Assembly (NCBI GenBank): GCA_964016885.1
Contig: OZ024743.1
Coordinates: 245,582,001-245,646,000, forward strand
DNA from: Eledone cirrhosa
Taxonomy: Eukaryota
DNA length: 64,000 bases
Direction: 5' to 3'
A model generated the notes under the pieces. The model saw nothing but the letters and a program-made list of their open reading frames with translations. It made no database searches and was not told the DNA's origin. Each line of letters opens with the position of its first letter. The stretch's first letter is position 1. Below, piece by piece: positions 1,376 to 64,000 of this stretch. A program made the translations under genes and the position numbers.

Positions 1376-3133
1376 CTAAAAAATCCCTGGACACTGCTCA
1401 ACTGTTTTCCCCACCTTTCTCCATTCCCATCTCTTATTACTCCAAGTGTTACTTTGGCACATCTGCATAATACAATGTTTTGCAAACGGATCGCGATCGC
1501 AAAGATCCATGAACTCAGTCAGAGTCGTCTTAACCATGTTATTGTTTACTTTAACAGCAGCATTGACCCGAAAGAAGATTTGATTTTCCTGAGGTAGATG
1601 AACTTGAAGGCGAACTACGACCGGTTCTCTCTCATGAATTGGAAATCCAAGTACCAAGGCAACAGCTTCTGAAGGACCGATATATCTTCCTGTTAAATAC
1701 TGTATTATCTCATCTGCTCTGTTCACTCCAAACATTGTTTGATCACTGCCCTTCATGGTATATTTGATAACGTATTTGATCGATTTCACGGAAGAGCACA
1801 TCTCTACGTTTAGGTGGCAGTTGAACAGTTTTAATAGTTTCATATTGTAGGGAACCACCCATTCCGAAGTTATATTTCGGCTTCCCCTTCCTTCTTGGTG
1901 CCCCTCAAATCCTCCCATTCCTGGAGACCGTCTTCTGTACACAGGATAAGAGTCCTCTCCACACAATGTATATTCATTGAAAGGTTTAGGGTACCGCTTA
2001 CTGTACGTTCCATCTTTCCAACACGGCGAATTGTTAGAGCAATTCGGACCATGGATCATGTGCTTCAGCACCAATTCATGACTCTTAGGATCTTTGTTTG
2101 GATCTGGTATTTCGGCTTGAACAAATTTATTGTATTCCTGCGGTCTGGGCTTGGAGGCTTCATTGAGCCATAGCAAACAGTGCACATGAGGAAGACCTCG
2201 CTTTTGATATTCGACTGTCAGCACGTAAGCAATACACTTACCAAATAGGCCATCTACTCCAGTAAGATACTTTCTTAACAGTTTCCGCTTCAGGTCAAAT
2301 ACTCTGGCAATTAAATCTGGCCTGTTGTGTGGCTTCTGATTCGGGAATAGGTTTTGCCAGTTTGGATTACATGTCATTGTGATGAAGAACGAAGGATTGC
2401 CGTACTTCCGTATGTACATCATGGCATCCTGGCATCGCTCCATCATATATCTCGGTCCACCGACAAATGTGGAAGAAAGTATGATTCGCCTGCCAATATT
2501 GCGAAAATCGTCATCATCATTCAATGCGTCAGTAAGGCCCTTGTATGTTGTAGATCGCAATGATGTTTGATTTATTCGGATGTATTGCAGTCTATCTCCT
2601 TCAATCTTCGCAGCCATGTCAACCAAATATTGCTGAAATAAACGACTGCCTCTGAGAAGTTGGTTGAATTCATTCTCATGGTTCATTATTCGATAGGCAT
2701 AGTAGCGCATTGGCGTCAACTTCTTGTTGTTGCTCATTAACAGCTCACGATGCCATCCGTCATCGCCAAAAAGAAAAAATAGACCGATGGACTGATGGGA
2801 CTCTGAGATTATTTGCAATTGTCCGCATTTTTCTTTCAACACAATGGGCCGTACTTTTGCTTGAAGTTTGGTGCTGTTTTGTATAATAATGGCAACTTCG
2901 TTTGCAGTTTGTGCATTGAATCTTCTCTCATGTTCCATTGCTTGTCTCCTATCAGGATCAATAATAATCGAAGTTTCGGGAATATTTTTAATTTGTTCTT
3001 TTGCCATTCGAAATGAAGCAACGTAAGGGTTATATTGTCTGAGTATTATTTCCAATAATTCAACTATGTCGCACTGAATGCCATCGTTATGGAGTATCCT
3101 GATCCTCAAATCAACACTATCCTGAAGATCCAA
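1376..3133 (-). pseudogene. Helitron Rep (HUH endonuclease) segment
   Basis: All three Rep motifs present in a 585-aa ORF; neighbouring segments are in other frames. Confidence 0.9.
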
Positions 3134-4574
3134 GAAGTAAATTTGAAGAAATTAGGGTTGTTCGTTGGGATTAGGGGTTAAGGAACCGATGTAATGGTGA
3201 ATTTGACCATGAATAACGATAGAAGGATTCCATCCACCCCTTGAGGAACGAACTTCTTCGGCCCCAAAAGATGTCATTTGGAACAGGCAGTTGTATTGTC
3301 TGAGGTTCTTCCTGAACTTGTTTGCCCTAGGTTGATCAGTACTAAATAAACTGTGAAGTTCCTGGGGTAAAGGCTGCAGATTCCCCAACCTGACTTTTCC
3401 ATTCATACAGCAAAAGTTAGCAGTTTCATCATGAAAAAGCATTACATGACAATAGACACAGATCTTATTCCTCTGTCCAACATCAGCAGAGAGGTCACGT
3501 CGTTGAACTGTCCTTGTTCTATCCCTAATGGTTTGTTGGCAAAGACGTTCAGTTCTCCGAGCGGCCGATTCATGATCTCTCCTTCTTCTGTCTCTTTCCC
3601 TCTGTTCCGCCAGACGTGCAGCCCTTACTTTATCAGTCTCATCGATCCTTCTATTCGCATGCCTGTCCCGATCTTGTTGGCGTTGACCACTATCTTGCTC
3701 ACCTTCTTCGGCTCTCCTTAGCCGTACTTTCTTTCCACTATCGCGATAGACCAACCAGATGTTTTCTTTCTTCCTTGTCGAGGCATTATTTAAGAATAGA
3801 AAATCGTATTCACCTTAGAAAAAATGCCTATTACCTCAACACATATTTTTTTTAAATCATCATTTAGAAATATTTCCAAATAATGAAAATATTGTCTGTT
3901 TAAACAACTCGTATTTTTCAAATCATATTCACTTAAAAAATACTTATTCTGTTTAAATACTTATTCTGTTTAAAGGAAGCTGAAATATATATACTCAGTG
4001 TACAAATAATTTTTATTTTTTAAGTCATTTTCACTTAAGAATATCTTTTAAATATACCAAGAAATATTTTTTCCATCGTATTCACTTGAAAATCATTTTT
4101 TTTAAAATGAAGATATTGTCTATGTAAATAAAGCTATTTGTGAAATCAAATTCACTTTAAAATATTTCTAAATAATTGAAATATTCTTTTTAACAAAAGC
4201 AAAAATATAAACACCTACTGTTTAAAACTAACTGGTATTTTTCAGTCATATTCACTTAATGCTTTTCTGATAATTAAAATATCGTCTGTTTAAAGAAAGC
4301 TCAAATATAGATACTTGAAGTACAAACAACTTGTAGTTTTGAAAACATATTCACTGAAAAATCTTTTTTTAATAATTATTAAAAATATTTCTCGAATGAT
4401 GAAAATAGTTTATGTCGATTTACGTCAAACTTGTTTTATCCCCATTTCAGGGTTATGTCACTTATTTCAGGGTTATGTCACTTATGTTCCCATTATGCAC
4501 CGTTTTGGTTATTTACGAAGGTATCCTACACACACACACAAATATATATATATATGTCTCTAACTTAAGTACTG

Positions 4575-5384: not shown

Positions 5385-6358
5385 TATATTTCTTTATTTG
5401 CCACAAGGGCGCACAAGAAAATGGGACAATACAAAGACACATGCCGGGGATTTTACATACAGTCGTGTAAAAAATATAAAACAAACAATTATAACAATCG
5501 AAATCCCCAATAAGGGGGAGGCGCCACAAATGGGTTGTTTAATACCCTGTCGATAGAACAACCCTCAATTTCAGGAGCGTGTTGTGCAAGTGCTCCTTTC
5601 TTCCTTTTGCTCTTTTCTTTAACCTATAGGCTTATAAACAGAGAAGGCCTAACCACTCGGGCCATTTTCGCTTCATTCACCCACCTTTCAGTAAATTTAC
5701 TGGGGTGCAGTGCCTCTCTCTCTACTCTGATTCTCCTTCTAAAGTGATACTTAAAGAAGGAAATCAATTGTTGTCCGGAGAGAAAGGTATCTGTCCTCAG
5801 TCCTCTCAATCTCGTCCACCATATAACCTCTTTCACCATAGCCACTATAGAGAGGAAAACCGTCTCTCTTTCATTTTTGAAAGAAGTTGGCGGTTTGATC
5901 CTTACTATGGACTCGGCAGTCAACTGGATTTGTCCCATACGCGACAGCCGTTGTTCTGCATAGTTCCACAGGTCAGTTACGCCCGGGCAGTGTACAATTG
6001 CGTGCAGGACAGTTTCAATGTCCTGCGCGCATCTTGGACACGTCCTCTTGGAAGGATCCCTGCCGGGGCGTCCGTGCCTGTAGATCTTGTCACGAACTGG
6101 TAGAGTTCCTCGGTAGCACTGCCAGGCCAGGGACCTCTGGAAGTTGTCCATGGGTCCCGGGCGGAAAGTCCTACCAAACAGAGTGGTGACTTCGTTGTCT
6201 TCGACGCCTAGAGTCTCTCCGAGCACGTCGTCGCCCTTGTGACGTACTAACCCTCTATAGAATGTCGAAGTGGAGTTTCCACTGATTGCCGTGCCCGCTT
6301 GACAGAGGATTGTGAGCGCCTGAGCGCATTGAATGTGCCAGGCGCCCATCTTCTTCGG
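5385..6358 (-). mobile_element. Tx1/L1-clade LINE, 5'-truncated 3' end
   Basis: ORF 5624-6349 has a zf-RVT-like motif (LPVRDKIYRHG..CPRC..ETVLHAIVHCP); 3' UTR ends in AATAAA; 5' end abuts (GA)n. Confidence 0.8.
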
Positions 6359-6366
6359 TCTTTATT

Positions 6367-18700: not shown

Positions 18701-21366
18701 CACAGGTTCTCAGCCCATTTGGGCCAAACGCCCCCTTTTGTCCCTCGAAATCACGAAACGCCCCTACCCTATTTTTCCATTTTTCAATATACTACTGATT
18801 TTGATATCAGTAGATTACTAAAAAATTGATTAACGATATTCCAAAGATACCATTGCAGGCAGCTGAGAGTATAAATACATTCCTTGAAAGGAAATATATA
18901 AATTTCCAAAAAAGGAACATAAATGTTCTTTTTTATGAATAAGGACCAGATGAATCTGTTATATTCCCACCAGGCGATACCAACTATTTTGAACATTTAT
19001 ACAAGAGCAACTCTGTCTATCCAAAGAGTGCTCTTATCTGGAAAGAAAGTGGCAATTATATCATTTCAAAGCTTTCCAATTTTCTCTTTAATGAAACGGA
19101 CAGAATAAATGTTGATATCTAACTTGATGTCCCCTCTGTTTTGTGAACTTAGAGACCACGGAAGAGGGTTTTCCTGACCATATAAGAGGGTATATTTATT
19201 AGTAAATGGTAAAATATATACAACAAATGAGAAAGGAAATTGTAGTAGATGGTTTCCCATCCAGTCAGACTGCAACTACAAATAAAACAATAGCATATCC
19301 AAGTTTTCGGATAAATCAACTTACTTTAACTTTGACCTCATTTCAATAGAACCATTGAGCTTCATGGAGTCTAGCTAACTCTTTAACGTCAGGCTGAATT
19401 TTTGTAAGATGTAGCCAGAGATCTCCACATGTAATTACATTGTAGCGGTTGCGAGCCTTACTGTGCAGTCTGGAAACTGCACCAAACCTCCTCTTGACTA
19501 AGTATGAGCTTGGAAAAGGCAGAGCAAATCTCTTAGCCTCTGTATGTAGGTGTGGAAATCGACGCTGAATTTCCTCTTGCATCCAAAAGAGGGGTTCACC
19601 TATTTGGGGAAATCTAATTTTGATCATGTCATCTGCTTGAAGTTCAATGAATTCTTCCTGAAATTTAACATCGAAATCGTCGACGTTAGCTATGAAGGGA
19701 TCTGCTATACACATTGGGTGGTCCATCGGCAAAAGGTCGACAAAGCGTTCTCTCATGTTGTCTTGTAGCACACGGAGGTGAGTGGTATAAATTTGGAATT
19801 GGTAATCGCTCACAATGTTTTGAACATTGGCGACACTAGGAAAATTATAGAATTCCCATCTACAAAGATTCCTTTCGATGACATTCAATTTGGCCAGGAA
19901 TGTTTTCACAGAATTCCTTGCTTTAAGCAAGGTGATCTTCCCATGCAAAGCCAAAATGACGCTATTGCATTTGTCAAAGATGTCGGTGAGGTAGGCGCAG
20001 TTTTGCCTCACATCGAGGGTTTTCTTGTACAGTTCTGTGTTGCGTCATCGCAGAAACTCAACGATAGAGTCGAACAGTTCAAAGAAGTGAGTAAGGCACT
20101 TGCCCTTTGAAAGGCACCTCACTTCATTATGAAGGAGCAACTTGATAAATTCTTCGTCATTATCTTGGCACAGTTGCCGGAAAATTCGTTCATTGAGGGA
20201 ATGCCGTTTGATAAAATTGATGACATCAATGGCCACCTGCAAGGACTTGCTCAGCGGCTTACTGAGTTTCTTCGCAGCCAAGTGTTGTCGATGAATGACA
20301 CAATGAACAACAAATACAGATAGATTTTCTCTCTTCAGAAGAGTTACGAAACCCTTATGCTGGCCGACCATTGATCTTGCGTCATCCGTAGCACATGATA
20401 CAATGTGTGTTGTATGTGGTCCTAGATGTATGTATTACCTTCCTGTGTGTTGTATGTAGTCCTAGATGTATGTATTACCTGATTATGTATTACATGTGGT
20501 CCCAGCTGTATGTATTATCTGCTTGTGCGTTGTATGTGGTCCTAGATGTGTGTATTACCTCCTTATGTGTTGTATGTGATCCTAGATGTATGTATTACCT
20601 GATTATGTGTTGTATGTGGTCCTAGATGTTTGTATTACTGATTATGTGTTGTATGTGATCCTAGATGTATGTATTACCTGCCTGTGTGTTGTATGTGGTC
20701 CTAGATGTGTGTAATACCTCCTTATGTGTTGCATGTGGTCCTAGATGTATGTATTACCTGCTTATGTGTTGTATGTGGTCCTAGATGTGTGTATTACCTG
20801 CTTATGTGTTGTATGTGGCCCTAGATGTGTGTATTACCTGCTTATGTGTTGTATGTGGTCCTAGATGTGTGTATTACCTGCTTATGTGTTGTATGTGGTC
20901 CTAGATGTGTGTATTATCTGATTATGTGTTGTATGTGGTCCTAGATGTGTGTGCTACCTGCTTCTGCGTTTTTTCTTTTCTTTTTTTTATTTGTACAATA
21001 TCATTTATACAATAGGGAATAAAGTAGATCTACATAGTGTTAACTCGTTACGGTTGAGTCAATAATTTATAAGATTCTAACTGGCTACGCTCAAAGTGTC
21101 CTTGACCCAGTTGACTGTGAGTTTTTTTCCATTTTTAGGATCTCAATTGCCGGTTAATGTCTAGAAACGCCTGCACACCTGCTCACAGCTACAGTCAGAC
21201 CATAGTTATGCTGTCTGCATGCTCGTACAAATGCATTCACACTGGCTGTCTCAGCGACATACAAATATGGCTTATAAAACTTACCAAAGTAAAGAGCCTT
21301 CCAGTGCCCCCCAAAGCTCCAAACGCTACCCTGGAGTTCCGAAACGCCCCGTGTTGAGAACCTTTG
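18701..21366 (-). mobile_element. hAT transposon (Buster/Charlie, ZBED8/SCAND3-like), internally deleted
   Basis: TIRs CACAGGTTCTCAGC / GTTGAGAACCTTTG; TSD ATTTAGTA at 18693-18700 and 21367-21374 (central TA); ORFs with HCVIHRQHLA, LLLHNEVRCLS, YLTDIF and PFPSSYLV. Confidence 0.92.
20401..20960. repeat. 40-bp minisatellite, 14 units
   Basis: Unit GCTTATGTGTTGTATGTGGTCCTAGATGTGTGTATTACCT. Confidence 0.95.
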
Positions 21367-28804: not shown

Positions 28805-30285
28805 TACTATATATTTTCAGCAGTAATATTATACTATATATTTACAACAGTAATACTATACATTTTCAACAGTAATACTATACTATACTATATATTTTCA
28901 ACAGTAATACCGTACTATATATTTTCAACAGTAATACTATACTATATATTTTCAACAATAATACTGTACTATATTATATATTTTCAACAGTAATACTGTA
29001 CTATATATTTTCAACAGTAATACTATACTATATATTTTCAACAGTAATACTGTACTATATATTTTCAACAGTAATACTGTACTATATATTTTCAACAGTA
29101 ATACTGTACTATATATTTTCAACAGTAATACTGTACTATATATTTTCAACAGTAATACTATACTATATATTTTCAACAGTAATACTATACTATATATTTT
29201 CAACAGTAATACTGTACTATATATTTTCAACAGTAATACTGTACTATATATTTTCAACAGTAATACTATACTATATATTTTCAACAGTAATACTGTACTA
29301 TATATTTTCAACAGTAATACTATACTATATATTTTCAACAGTAATACTGTACTATATATTTTCAACAGTAATACTATACTATATATTTTCAACAGTAATA
29401 CTGTACTATATATTTTCAACAGTAATACTATACTATATATTTTCAACAGTAATACTGTACTATATATTTTCAACAGTAATACTATACTATATATTTTCAA
29501 CAGTAATACTGTACTATATATTTTCAACAGTAATACTATATTATATATTTTCAACAGTAATACTGTACTATATATTTTCAACAGTAATACTGTACTATAT
29601 ATTTTCAACAGTAATACTGTACTATATATTTTCAACAGTAATACTATACTATATATTTTCAACAGTAATACTATACTATACTATACATTTTCAACAGTAA
29701 TACTATACTATACTATACATTTTCAACAGTAATACTACTATACAATACTATATATTTTCAACAGTAATACTATACATTTTCAACAGTAATACTATACTAT
29801 ACTATATATTTTCAACAGTAATACCGTACTATATATTTTCAACAGTAATACTATACTATATATTTTCAACAATAATACTGTACTATATTATATATTTTCA
29901 ACAGTAATACTGTACTATATATTTTCAACAGTAATACTATACTATATATTTTCAACAGTAATACTGTACTATATATTTTCAACAGTAATACTATACTATA
30001 TATTTTCAACAGTAATACTGTACTATATATTTTCAACAGTAATACTATATTATATATTTTCAACAGTAATACTGTACTATATATTTTCAACAGTAATACT
30101 GTACTATATATTTTCAACAGTAATACTGTACTATATATTTTCAACAGTAATACTATACTATATATTTTCAACAGTAATACTATACTATACTATACATTTT
30201 CAACAGTAATACTATACTATACTATACATTTTCAACAGTAATACTACTATACAATACTATATATTTTCAACAGTAATACTATGCT
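28805..30285. repeat. 27-bp minisatellite with higher-order duplication
   Basis: Unit TTTTCAACAGTAATACTRTACTATATA; variant blocks recur at a 914-bp offset. Confidence 0.95.
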
Positions 30286-30382
30286 ACACAGACGGCTTAT
30301 CATCTGTTTATCCAAGCGAAGCTAGGTACGTCAGCTATATATATATATATATAGTTATGTAATAAACAACATAAGGCAATTA

Positions 30383-37801: not shown

Positions 37802-38711
37802 GTTATATAATGCTGAAGACGCCGGTTTAATTAGGGGAAAATGTTGATAGAAGAGGAATTTCTGATATCAAACTTTCGTTATAGCTATCGTAAGTATAAT
37901 ATCGCCATAGCTTCATTATGATTTCACAACGTATTTTTTTACCTTGCACGTCGAAATCATTTGTGTGACATTGTGCTATGTATTATATAAGGAGAGTAGT
38001 GAATGTCATCCGGTTGTTGTTATCATAAGACAATTTCTATGATATTTGTGTTTTAATCTCAATCTAAGTGCTCCCTTGGGCGATATTTAATTTTAGCGGC
38101 CTAAATGCCGCTTACTTGCTGTAGTTGCTGCTTACTTCAATGTATGAGGCTATTCCAACAAATTTACATTCCCCCTTTTTTAGCTGTTAAAAGAAATATA
38201 GATTTATTTATTGTTTTTTTTTTTACCATTTCTCCACCTTGATCCTTCTTTCGAAGTGGTATCGGAGGAAGAGGACCATTTGTTGGCCGGCGACATATCC
38301 CCACAGTTTCCTCGTTGCAAACGCATCTGGGACATTTCTTTTCCAAGGGGTTTCCGTCCCGGAATCCGTGTCTGTAGAGCCTTTCCCGAACGGGCAGGGC
38401 CCCTCGGTATAATAGTAAGTATTAGTGGTTGTAATAAAAATGCAATCAAAATGTAATAAATACCTTCACTGATTTCTTTCCTTATATTATCAACAGAAGT
38501 TGGTATGTCACCCAAAGTTCGCTTTGTATGTTCCCGAATAGCAGTGAATTTTGATAAAACTGTGTAGTTGAAGAGGATAAGTATGAAAGAACAGTCATTT
38601 AAATTTACAGATGGACAGATGTGGTGTTTGGCAGGGTTTGAGATATATAGAAAAATAATTATTTACAGAAAAAGAAAATAATAATAAAGAATTATTATAA
38701 TTTTTTTAAAG

Positions 38712-38870
38712 ATTTATATCTTTTTGGACTACACATGGATATTTGTCTTACTGTGGAGAAGGAATTAGAAACAGTTTTATCAAAATTCACTGCTATTCGG
38801 GAACATACAAAGCGAACTTTGGGTGACATACCAACTTCTGTTGATAATATAAGGAAAGAAATCAGTGAAG
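38712..38870 (+). pseudogene. RMND5: Captured RMND5 (GID2/CTLH E3 ligase subunit)-like first coding exon
   Basis: MDICLTVEKELETVLSKF resembles the RMND5A N-terminus as recalled (MDQCVTVERELEKVLHKF); AG at 38710-38711 and GT at 38871; no other RMND5 exon seen. Confidence 0.72.
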
Positions 38871-38924
38871 GTATTTATTACATTTTGATTGCATTTTTAT
38901 TACAACCACTAATACTTACTATTA

Positions 38925-39390
38925 TACCGAGGGGCCCTGCCCGTTCGGGAAAGGCTCTACAGACACGGATTCCGGGACGGAAACCCCTTGGAAAAGAAAT
39001 GTCCCAGATGCGTTTGCAACGAGGAAACTGTGGGGATATGTCGCCGGCCAACAAATGGTCCTCTTCTTCCGATACCACTTCGAAAGAAGGATCAAGGTGG
39101 AGAAAAAGGCACTCAGTCCCAGCCAATTCCATGAAAGATGGGTGAAAGTAGCAATTATGGCCTGTGTAAGTGGGCCATCTCTCTATATCGGCTTGTACAG
39201 GTAAGAGAAGAAGGGAGCATCCCCCTCTCTCTGTGCTCCCTGGCAGAAAGGTCGCACACTTTCTACGGGGGTGTGTGTGACCCCAAAAGGCTAATAAATC
39301 GCAAACAAACAAACAAACAAACAGGGGGCAAATAAAGAAATCTATGCCCCAGTGGCAAATAAATCGCAAAAAAAAAACAATAAATAAATC
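38925..39390 (+). mobile_element. Tx1 3' fragment inside the fold-back arm
   Basis: YRGALPVRERLYRHG..CPRC..EETV and FFRYHFERRIKVEK; homologous to 5624-6349. Confidence 0.75.
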
Positions 39391-39467
39391 TATATTTCTT
39401 TTAACGGCTAAAAAAGGGGGAATGTAAATTTGTTGGAATAGCCTCACATTGAAGTAAGCGGCATTTA

Positions 39468-40775
39468 ATAATAATAATAATAATAATGAAATTGTGTACA
39501 GTGCTCAGGTGCACTACAACTCATCAAAAGTGCATGTATAGTACATAGAATAATGTACAAATGTCAGGAAAATGAACAGTGTACGAGTCATGATATAACA
39601 ACAATAATGAAATATTGTGTACAGTGCCCAGGTGCACCACAACTCATCAAAAAAGTGCATGTACAGTACATAGGGCAATGCACAAACATCAGTAAAATAA
39701 ACAGTGCACGAGTCATGATACACACGTGTGCATGTATATGGAAGGGGTACATCAGGTGTAGTTTTGGCATATTTCGGGAAGCATGAGTGTCTTAAAGGAT
39801 GCAGTGTCTCGGCAGCTAACAATTGACGCAGGCAGTTTGTTCCATGCTTCAGCAACTCTGAGCGTGAAAAAATGTCTACGAAAGTCATGGGAGCTGTGCT
39901 GTTTTCCCGATCTTGTAGGCATGTCCACGTGTGTTAGACACATGGAGATCAAAGAGGCGCTCAGGGTTGCAATTGGCGAGATGGTTAAAAACTTTGTGGG
40001 TATTCACCAAGTCCATTGCCAGACGTCGGAGCTTCAATGAATCCATGCCCAGGGAAGCAAGGCGTTCAGAGTATGGTAGGTGTCTGATGGAGGGTATGCG
40101 CTTGGTTGCACGTCTCTGAACAGTTTCCAGGAGGTCAATGTTCTGAGCAAGATAGGGGTCCCAGACTGATGATGCGAATTCCAAGTGTGGTCGTACCATA
40201 GCTGTATACAGTTTTAAATAGATGGCTGGAGAGCGGCTAACAAAGGTCTTGCTGAGTGATGCCAAGACACCCTCGGCCTTCTTGACAATCTTAGAGTCAT
40301 GCTTTGTCCAACGCAAATCGTTGCTGACAGTAATGCCCAGGTCACGTTCACAAGAGGACTTTTTGATCTCAGTGTTGTGGAGGGAGTATGTGGACGCTGG
40401 ATTTTTTCTTCCAAAATGCATGGTGGTACACTTGTCCACAGCCAGCTTCAGTTGCCAGTCTGTGATCCATTGCTGCATTGTGTCCAGGTCTGATTGTAGG
40501 AAAGAGTTGTAAATTTCAGGATCAGTCCTTTTGATTTCAAGGTACAGCTTGATGTCATCTGCATATTTTAGTACCGTGGCATTCTGTAAGTTGGCATCTA
40601 TGTCGTTAATATATGCCACAAACAAAAGAGGACCAAGAACAGATCCCTGTGGTACACCAGATGACATCTCATATGGTGAAGAATGCTGTCCTAGAACCGT
40701 GACTACTTCTTTTCGGCTGAGAATTAAGGATTTCAACCAGTCGAAAAGATCATCCCTCACACCCATTGCAGAGAG
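39468..40775 (-). mobile_element. CR1-group LINE, 5'-truncated, with (ATT)n tail
   Basis: SGVPQGSVLGPLLF, YADD and VRPHLEFA motifs; TTTA on both sides; same family as 61450-64000. Confidence 0.92.
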
Positions 40776-40939
40776 TTTAGGCCGCTAAAATTGGATATCG
40801 CCCTCCCTTGTTATAGAAGACTGAGTTACTCTTTTACAAATATGGGGATCGTCAATTATACAGGCCTCTTTCTGTGACTCCAGCGTTTGCAGCATTTAAT
40901 ACTCTTACTATTTAGATACACCTGCTGGAGATGCTACAT

Positions 40940-60667: not shown

Positions 60668-61449
60668 TGCTACTGTACGTCTGTATACATATATGTATGT
60701 ACGTATACACACATACTTATATATATATATGCATATTTGTGTAGATATGGATGTATTTATGTATATATGATGTGTTATGTGTTTTATGCTTGTATATGTA
60801 TAGAAAAAAAAAATTTCCTACGTGTCTAAACTGAAGACTGACAATGTAAGTTACCTCCCTTTCGTTGATATTTTTAATCCTTTTTGTTACTTTGACAGGG
60901 TTTCCCAACCTTCTCTCAGCCAGTGCCCCCTTTGGGCGCAAACTTTTTTGTCAACACCCCCAGCAAATTAAATTTCAAATAAGATACTGAATTCATCTTA
61001 CATCAAATGGGTACAAAACCTAAAACAAATGTGTGTGTGTGCACATCTGTGGTTGGGCCTTTAATCGCTAGGGGTCAATTTAAGTTCAATCGCAGAAAGG
61101 AATTCATCTTTGCATGCTTGTGTACATGGGTTGGTCAAGTGGGGTGCCTCAGTGGTTGTGGAGGATGCATGTATATATTTGTGTATATAAGTGGTCGTGG
61201 AGGTGCCATGGCAAAAAAGCACCCAACACTCACTGTAAATGAGGTTGGTGTTAGGAAGGGCATCCAGCTATAGAAATCAAGCCAGAATCAGTTCCCGTAT
61301 GAGCAAGACAAGGTCAGCTGACCGGACACTGCCCACAACAGGACAACCCGTCTAACCCATGCTAGCGTGGAAGAACGGACGTAAAACGGTGATGATATGT
61401 ATATATATACATACTTATATGTGTGTGCATGTATGTATATACTCGTGTA

Positions 61450-64000
61450 TAATAATAATAATAATGCAATATTGTGTACAGTGCTCAGGTACACTACAAC
61501 TCATCAAAAAGTGTATGTATAGTACATAGGGTAATGTACAAACGTCAGGAAAATGAACAGTGCATGAGTCATGATATACACGTGTGCATGTGTATGGAAG
61601 GGGTACATCAGGTGTAGTTTTGGCGAATTTCGGGAAGCATGAGGGTTTTAAAGGATGCAGTGTCTCGGCAGGCAGTTTGTTTCATGCTTCAGCAACTCTG
61701 AGCGTGAAAAAATGTTTCCGAAAGTCATGGGAGCTGCGCTGTTTTCTGATTTTGTAGGTATGTCCACGCGTGTTAGACACATGGAGATCAAAAAGGTACT
61801 CAGGGTTGCTGTTGGCGACATGGTCAATAACTTTGTGGGTGTTTACCAAGTCCATTGCCAGATGTCGGAGCTTCAATGAATCCATGCCCAGGGAAGCAAG
61901 GCGTTCAGAGTATGGTAGATGTCTGATGGAGGGTATGCGCTTGGTTGCACATCTCTGAACAGTTTCCAGGAGGTCAATGTTCTGAGCAAGATAGGGGTTC
62001 CAGACTGATGATGCGAATTCCAAGTGTGGTCGTACCATAGCTGTATACAGCTTTAAATAGATGGCTGGAGAGCAGCTAACAAAGGTCTTGCTGAGTGATG
62101 CCAAGACACCCTCGGCCTTCTTGACAATCTTAGAGACATGCTTTATCCAATGCAAATCGCTGCTGACAGTAATGCCCAGGTCACGTTCACAAGAGGACTT
62201 CTTGATATCAGTGTTGTGGAGGGAGTATGTGGACGCTGGACTTTTTCCTCCCAAAATGCATGGTGGTACACTAGTCCACAGCCAGCTTCAGTTGCCAGTC
62301 TTTGATCCATTGCTGCATTGTGTCCAGGTCTGATTGTAGGGAGTTGTAGATTTCAGGATCAGTCTTTTTGATTTCAAGGTACAGCTTGATGTCATCTGCA
62401 TATTTCAGTACCGTGGCATTCTTTAAGTTGGCATCTATGTCATTAATATATGCTGCAAACAAAAGGGGACCAAGAACAGATCCCTGTGGTACACCAGATG
62501 ACATCTCTTTTAGGCTGAGAATGAAGGATTTCAACCAGTTAAAAAGATCATCCCTCACACCCATTGCAGAGAGTTTTGCCATAAGTCTTTTGTGTGGCAC
62601 AGAATTAAAACCCTTAGCGAAGTCAAGGTAAACAACATCCACCCATGAGCCGCTGTCAGTGATCCGGGTAATGTCTTCAAGGAACTCGATAAGCTGATCA
62701 CAACAGCTGGAGTTAGGGATAAATCCAAACTGTGAGAGCTCCAGAAGTTCCAAAGTGTTTCTCTGATACAGGATTCCATCAGTTTGGCAATACAGCTAGT
62801 AAGACTGACTGGGCGATAGTTGACAGGTGACGTGCGGTCACCCTTTTTGAACAGGGGAATGACACTGGCAGTTTTCCACTGCTCCGGAGTAGCACCATTG
62901 TTGAGACAGTATTGAAAGAAGAAAGAAAGCTGGTGCAAAAGGAAGTACCCGCCACGTTTGAGAAGCAGGTATGTAACACCATCAAGACCAGGGGAGGCAT
63001 AGTTGCGCTTATTCTTAAGGTGACGTCGCAACATTGCAGGTGTAAATTCCATAGTTCTTATGGAATTTGATGTTAGAGATGGTAGAGATGGTACATTCTG
63101 GTTTTCAACAGTAAAAGTGCTTGCATAGCACTCAGCAATGAGTTCTGTGGATTTGGGATCGTCAGTGATCTGGCTTGTGTGAGGATTGCGAAGAGGACCA
63201 ACTGGAGAGTGAGGTCTCTGCTTTGAATGAACATATTTCCAGAACACCTTACTGTCAGGATTGGTGGCTATGCACTGTTCAAATTCAAGCACTGCCTTTT
63301 TTGTCACTTGCTTGAGATGGTTGGAAGATTTATTCCGCTTTTTTCTGTTGGCATCTGATTTATGCAGTTTATATTCCCGTTCAGCGTTCCGACGTTCTTT
63401 CCTGGCAAGTCGGACCGCTGAAGTTTCCCAAATTGCACTTTTGGGTGGTTTTTTTTCTGCTTACGTGGCACCGATGCTGCACACGCTATCCATATTGAGT
63501 CCAGGATGCTCTGGAATATAGTGTTCACATCTCCAGAGTTATAGAACTCATGCCAGTTTGGGCGCTGTCGCTCAGTACAGTACAAGTTCCAATCTGCTTT
63601 CTTCCAATCAAAGCAAGCAGATTGGAGATGGTTCTGGTTTTTGTTGCTGCCCGCAAGAGCCAGATTGGCAATGATCATAGCATGATCAGGGTCGCCTAGA
63701 GGTTCCTCAGTAGTACAACTGATAACCACTTCAGGAGTAGTGGTGAAGATCAGGTCCAAAGTGTTGTCACCTCTTGTTGGAGAGGTGACTACTTGTTACC
63801 AGTTTGAGTCCAGCACTAGCTCAAGGAAATCGTTTGCACTTTGTGGCTAACGAAAGGTTTCCCAATCGATCTCAGGATGATTGAAGTCACCTGCAATAAA
63901 CACATAAGTGGCTGTTTTCCTGGCAGCAGCTCTGAGGATATCGCAAAGCTGTGTGTCCTGATGGTAGTTTGGGGGGCGATAAACAACACCAAGCAGAAGT
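61450..64000 (-). mobile_element. CR1-group LINE (APE plus RT), frameshifted; runs off the right edge
   Basis: GDFNHP, LDLIFT, DH, SPGLDG, NYRPVSLT, YLDFAK, YADD; (ATT)n tail. Confidence 0.93.

Follow-up and report, generated by a model that had tools for sequence, protein, structure and literature searches.

A multicopy fold-back Merlin transposon family with a captured RMND5 exon in its inverted arms in Eledone cirrhosa

A stretch of 64,000 bp of the Eledone cirrhosa genome (GCA_964016885.1, contig OZ024743.1, positions 245,582,001 to 245,646,000 of the forward strand; hereafter the window) contains an element that had been described, from its letters, as a fold-back transposon with Merlin-like ends and a captured RMND5-like exon, and we were interested whether this element belongs to a mobile family and where its palindrome had arisen. 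The element occupies 38079-40802 (2724 bp) between exact 8-bp target site duplications (TSDs) of CTCCCTTG at 38071-38078 and 40803-40810 (both + strand), and its termini read GGCGA, both as proposed. The 27-bp terminal inverted repeats (TIRs) at 38079-38105 (+) and 40776-40802 (-) start with 5'-GG and agree at 25 of 27 positions, with GGCGATAT present at both ends of the element.

Inwards of the left TIR follow, all in minus orientation, a mirror of the right-end subterminal region of the family (38106-38223), ending at a deletion of ~260 bp at 38223/38229, and mirrors of a Tx1-like LINE fragment (38229-38407), of the start of RMND5 intron 1 (38408-38462) and of the first coding exon of RMND5 (38463-38563), whose ATG end was removed in this copy by a ~38-bp deletion. 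The single-copy centre (38564-38727, -) consists of DNA upstream (5') of RMND5 with some bases from the 3' flank of the transposase and is 83% identical, with gaps, to positions 6172-6336 of the host locus L127. Across the central fold-back or deletion junction, with its AGT microhomology (38716-38738, not oriented), the right arm continues in plus orientation with the captured first coding exon (38735-38870; ATG, 45 codons and one base, the GT donor coming next), the start of intron 1 (38871-38926, matching the host), the 3' end of a Tx1/L1-like LINE shortened by internal deletion (38927-39367; a zf-RVT remnant, followed by what is probably the 3' UTR and by A-rich tails, with a presumptive extent of the LINE tail in this interval) and the right subterminal region (39368-39466). 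Just inside the right TIR lies a later, 5'-truncated LINE insertion of 1.31 kb (39467-40775, -) with an RVT_1 domain (Pfam E 1.3e-17), a (TAA)n tail and TTTA flanks, which is foreign to the family and has a 92% identical copy at window 61449-62576. The cargo is thus as given in the preliminary description, which however did not mention this LINE, about half of the copy. A transposase is absent from the window copy, as had been stated.

The main arms (38229-38563 against 38771-39105) are 99.7% identical over 335 nt and the outer arms (38126-38223 against 39368-39463) 96% over 98 nt, to which the TIRs are added. The near-identical arms of ~480 bp proposed earlier are therefore real, but they are interrupted, and arms of the family measure ~785 bp. 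A stretch of ~260 bp (about 39106-39367) is found in the right arm only, and because other copies keep it in both arms, it was deleted from the left arm of the window copy. Folding of 38229-39105 led to a predicted hairpin of -688 kcal/mol (z -95), which merely restates the palindrome. Tandem Repeats Finder detected no tandem arrays in the arms, its sole hit in the element lying within the LINE. Elsewhere in the window, minisatellites were observed at 28805-30286 (27-bp unit, 53 copies) and 20406-20970 (40-bp unit, 14 copies), and a 591-aa ORF at 1379-3151 (-) presumably represents a fragment of a Helitron replicase/helicase.

Searching the 3.0-Gb genome with the TIR pattern, allowing at most two mismatches, led to 422 matches (210 forward, 212 reverse), and the reversed control pattern gave none; the family size is roughly 200 copies. 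The central junction of the window copy occurs 43 times in the assembly and, together with the TIR counts, rules out a chance or single-copy artefact. Among 62 distinct end pairs drawn from the fetched loci, an exact 8-bp TSD was present in 42 and one within a single mismatch in 51, none fitted a TSD of 7, 9 or 10 bp, and 11 had no TSD even at one mismatch, so that the ends seen in the window turned out to be those of a genome-wide family with 8-bp TSDs. Element sizes across these pairs range from 374 to 4909 bp, the window copy being a member of a class of ~1.73 kb with arms of ~785 bp and a centre of ~165 bp. Distinct 8-bp TSDs across copies indicate that these element forms have transposed. 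Family members are often nested in or adjoin each other or transposase copies (L099, L010, L012, L048, L033, L132), which suggests local hopping or self-insertion.

Public sequencing runs also speak against a misassembly of the palindrome, a worry of the preliminary description: in three of four runs (X1, X4 and X6; not X5), contigs join 38569 to 38728 on opposite strands, and the junction is thus present under two organism labels (X1 and X4 organism A, X6 organism C). In the right flank of the window element X6 shows 22 differences over 235 bases, so that a diverged genome has the fold-back, too. Contigs of X1, which may be the assembly's own sample, cross both end junctions of the window copy with 0 differences, no listed piece covering the whole element. 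No joint that skips the element, as an empty site would give, was seen among the joints listed from public-run contigs.

The same ends were found around a transposase. Pfam model PF12762 (DDE_Tnp_IS1595) gave 150 scored matches in the genome, some of them between these very TIRs, including those of L097, L098, L099, L100, L102 and others. The family transposase scored above the cut-off (E 3.8e-15), the domain is carried by 92 of 93 transposase homologs, and the best named matches were hypothetical proteins of snails (44-46% identity). At its N-terminus (L139:2048-2518, -), two CxxC pairs accompany a weak Zn_ribbon_IS1595 match (PF12760; E 0.0033, 17.8 bits against a cut-off of 25.4). A DNA search with one family transposase, in which 40 of 268 candidates were scored, led to 18 annotated elements at an identity of at least 90% (L146 and L155 being one element with a common TSD). 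The 3' end of the transposase is kept in 16 of the 18, L152 and L154 lacking it, and in all 16 it runs on into RMND5 DNA (for 59 bp only in L151). The order in these members is transposase, RMND5 upstream DNA, exon 1, intron start, Tx1-like fragment and right TIR, so that the transposase-bearing partner, too, carries the cargo. No intact transposase ORF was found in 14 loci (longest 283 aa), which is no requirement for membership of a non-autonomous copy. Merlin elements are defined by TIRs with 5'-GG and a TSD of 8 or 9 bp in the accessible part of a survey (PMC8101967). As the transposase inside the ends is of the DDE_Tnp_IS1595 type, the termini start with GG and the TSDs measure 8 bp, the family is a Merlin, in agreement with the type proposed from the window alone.

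The source of the cargo lies at C5:79.536 Mb (exon C5:79536336-79536473), and what was captured there is the first coding exon (136 bp) with ~165 bp of DNA preceding its ATG and the first 55-80 bp of intron 1. Exon and intron start match the host locus with 96% identity over 191 nt (87% in protein), and the match includes the upstream DNA, confirming the reading as an RMND5-like exon with its following intron. Taken by itself, the translated exon matches residues 1-42 of human RMND5A weakly (E 0.036), showed no significant Pfam match, and gave nine candidates, none significant, when its 45 aa were searched in a large protein collection; its identity therefore rests on the host locus. There, 9.4 kb downstream on the same strand, an exon at C5:79.5458 Mb matches human RMND5A 174-229 (E 2.9e-16), and a CTLH search of the genome gave seven matches. 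Only cargo matches were found in the 130 kb of host region fetched; the parental locus is unlinked to the transposon. The captured piece retains the GT donor and the start of the intron, which indicates capture at the DNA level and rules out a retrocopy. A motif from the exon start occurs 136 times in the genome including the host, thus about 135 times outside it; it is the larger family members that carry the exon, many of them with a mirrored copy in each arm. The commonest letters of the copies differ from the host exon at six positions, each of which alters an amino acid, and the elements contain no subsequent RMND5 exon; a coding role is unsupported, with no sign of constraint in numbers too small for a selection test, and the exon is most likely a passenger. 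Behind the intron piece follows the LINE 3' fragment, which we take to be Tx1-like. A zf-RVT domain was recognised in the longer copy L148 (E 1.9e-7), as expected from the Tx1 assignment made for the window; the short piece of the window copy itself, however, gave no significant Pfam match. Its free-standing relatives were sought without success: all ten new top loci were family members (40 of 6466 candidates scored). An ORF at window 5627-6361 (-) resembles the fragment by eye, so that LINE relatives also exist outside the transposon. Taken together, further copies, a Merlin transposase, an RMND5 match and a fold-back junction that recurs in the assembly and in public-run contigs were all found, the four points on which the preliminary description had staked itself.

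The origin of the palindrome is best seen in L102, a palindrome of 3828 bp with 97.6% identity between its arms and an 8-bp TSD, in which two divergent, mirror-image transposase genes are present and both arms carry the cargo. All 13 mapped elements, including the window copy, are collinear with L102 apart from gaps and insertions (L099 holding a nested copy and L154 being mapped in part only), and long inverted arms around a variable middle, as in foldback elements, were found in the family. In copies with a short left arm, the left end consists of the mirrored right end and the mirrored transposase 5' region, folded at the central loop of L102. We therefore consider it probable that the window copy is a transposase-less member of the Merlin family and a deletion descendant of a palindromic, cargo-bearing founder with two right ends. 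The captured DNA does form the arms, as had been suspected, but the fold-back most likely happened a single time, in a founder that carried a transposase, and not in the window copy. While the gap left by an excision was being repaired, template switching may have brought RMND5 and LINE DNA into a founder Merlin, 3' of its transposase. The full palindrome would have formed when synthesis folded back from a break 5' of the transposase, so that the native left end was replaced. Central deletions may have produced the series of 0.4-3.5 kb, one of them, with AGT microhomology, the 1.73-kb class, and the family transposase would have moved the deletion derivatives in trans. The arms of one element would be kept alike by gene conversion between them or by repair from a hairpin template, and the window copy later lost ~260 bp and ~38 bp of its left arm and gained its LINE. 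Among the elements examined there was no cargo-free member and none with a clearly native left end, and for this reason the order of capture and fold-back was not observed.

A different history would be a stepwise TIR extension as in Galileo, with an asymmetric Pack-Merlin like L148 as the ancestral form, L102 as end product instead of founder, and long arms that grew repeatedly by conversion, the right end being copied over the left to varying depth. L148, L149, L151 and L154 do have short left arms, L148 and L149 hold the longest Tx1-like piece as well as transposases of 91-92% identity and so look older, deletions common to both arms indicate recurring arm copying, and TIR extension by recruitment of internal sequence is described in the available part of PMC3573991. 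Yet the short-armed copies, too, contain the inverted transposase 5' region folded at the central loop of L102, and the left arm of L151 includes LINE-tail sequence from the right end, so we regard this course as unlikely. For the cargo, the RMND5 piece and the Tx1-like fragment could have been captured jointly, from an older host allele with a LINE in intron 1, instead of by two template switches. The LINE fragment indeed directly follows the intron in the longest copies; the present host intron, however, continues into unrelated sequence at this point and the LINE part of a 1.73-kb member was unmatched in the 130 kb of host region, which makes joint capture quite improbable. An 8-bp TSD alone is not diagnostic of a superfamily, and the ends might be mobilised by hAT or a similar superfamily with the Merlin ORF as a passenger. 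This is extremely improbable, given that DDE_Tnp_IS1595 is the sole transposase seen within these ends, that a relative of ~70% identity (L160) has a similar GGCGATA end, and that GG termini with an 8-bp TSD fit Merlin.

For 23 elements of the 1.7-kb class from the fetched loci (one of a tandem pair omitted), a 466-bp arm segment was compared. Variants restricted to two arms were shared within the same element in 15 cases (23 pairs) and between elements in 9 (1012 pairs), an excess with a binomial p of 1.7e-19; a CpG transition accounts for just one of the 15. Arms of one element diverged by 0.99%, those of different elements by 1.40%. As 77 variants stay in one arm, homogenisation is partial. 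In addition, identical deletions are present in both arms of L097, and likewise of L102, L144 and L150. These patterns point to gene conversion between the arms, or else to repair templated by a hairpin. Assembly and polishing are difficult where inverted repeats are long and nearly perfect, and the point variants common to both arms could partly be an artefact of this. That the homogenisation signal as a whole, in an otherwise real family, reflects reads of one arm overwriting the other seems rather improbable to us, considering the majority of variants remaining in one arm, the shared deletions of at least 100 bp in four elements, and the central junction in public-run contigs under two organism labels.

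Mirror elements were also observed outside the RMND5-carrying family. A second Merlin family with GGCACTAC (GGCAC) ends forms palindromes of ~3 kb with two mirror transposase ORFs (L101:2254-5534, L103:1442-4491 and L104:1972-4808), which suggests that Merlins of this genome are prone to fold back whether or not they carry the RMND5 cargo. In L101 a portion of the TIR sequence lies at the centre, a hint that folding started from the native left end. Loci L078-L096 represent an abundant third family of the IS1595 type with open ORFs of ~330 aa, and many of them show long local inverted repeats.

With the Merlin/IS1016 elements (IS1595 family) as described in the accessible part of PMC8101967, the family has GG termini, an 8-bp TSD and a DDE_Tnp_IS1595 transposase in common. 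The TIRs reported there measure 24-462 bp, whereas here the core TIR of 27 bp continues into arms ~785 to ~1900 bp long that consist of host DNA and transposase; Merlins are described there as having no N-terminal Zn_Tnp_IS1595 domain, whereas the family transposase shows the weak, below-cut-off Zn_ribbon_IS1595 match. In the same part of that survey, 'palindrom' and 'foldback' do not occur and 'captur' occurs in one reference title only. Animal Pack-TIRs, including Ssk-FB4, likewise contain an intron-containing host fragment from an unlinked locus and have distinct TSDs, according to the available part of PMC8277862, and an unlinked parental host copy, a retained intron and several copies with distinct TSDs were all found here. 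In that source, 4 of 370 are multicopy, with three copies in the example given, hAT and TcMariner account for most, and the main text never mentions 'Merlin', a table header being its one occurrence in 12 supplements. Here, by contrast, the exon start is found ~135 times outside the host, lies in the arms and is carried by transposase-bearing members. Galileo and Tetris/FB resemble the family in their long variable arms, variable middle and inverted repeats that have taken in internal sequence, and conversion among foldback copies has been proposed for them, as far as the accessible parts of PMC3573991 and PMC4079207 go. Foldbacks are there assigned mostly to Mutator or P, with exceptions (PMC4079207), and Galileo arms recruit the element's own flanks, its longest-armed copies being without transposase (PMC3573991); the arms of our family, in contrast, contain host exon DNA, to which the largest form adds two complete transposase genes. 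As the window-copy arms have no outer domain of internal tandem repeats, the element behaves as a foldback without being classed with the FB/Tetris type. Plant Pack-MULEs are alike in capturing gene fragments from several sources and in multicopy spread (PMC8277862, in the part available). They belong to another superfamily and kingdom than the RMND5-carrying Merlin family. Their cargo normally lies between the TIRs. An octopus repeat annotation names Merlin in a table only, in its accessible part (PMC13282606). Titles and abstract openings in mostly freely readable literature, Repbase and Dfam aside, contained no gene-carrying or palindromic Merlin. The multicopy fold-back Pack-Merlin is thus real and well supported; each ingredient has precedent, and in the literature so delimited we did not find in print the combination of a Merlin, a family-wide host exon, cargo as arms, a mirror founder with two transposases and arm conversion.

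Two observations in the public runs bear on expression and on spread beyond this genome. None of the runs listed as containing the element is an RNA dataset. Run X4, not on record as RNA, contains a contig of 1435 nt with the six host alleles of the exon, whose match ends exactly at the splice donor (window 38742-38870), as expected of a spliced RMND5 mRNA; X4 barely covers unique flanks, and both the element-type exon and the fold-back junction are present in it as well. This is a weak hint at transcription at most, or DNA carry-over of a multicopy element. In run X5 (organism B), pieces of the element agree with this genome without a single difference over 197 and 142 nt (depth ~3; window 38561-38869), and the apparent own RMND5 exon of organism B differs at 13 of 146 positions; the pieces may stem from cross-contamination or horizontal transfer.

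With this finding Merlin joins the gene-capturing superfamilies, and the family represents a rare animal case of a captured exon amplified more than 100-fold, compared with about three copies in most multicopy animal Pack-TIRs published, as far as the available part of the survey goes. The near-complete series from a two-transposase palindrome to MITE-sized copies makes foldback origin and arm conversion directly measurable. It is conceivable, though on the whole unlikely in our view, that Merlins here spread as self-made palindromes with two right ends, their arms kept alike by copying, and that the scattered RMND5-exon hairpins yield small RNAs acting on this CTLH/GID subunit or on the transposase. 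The structural half of this reading is largely borne out by the elements described above, and the regulatory half is hypothetical. If it were true, the genome would hold the RMND5 start exon in dozens of scattered, near-perfect hairpin templates; transcription of the element is predicted to give a hairpin RNA, and such hairpins would offer a transposon a route to silence an essential host gene.
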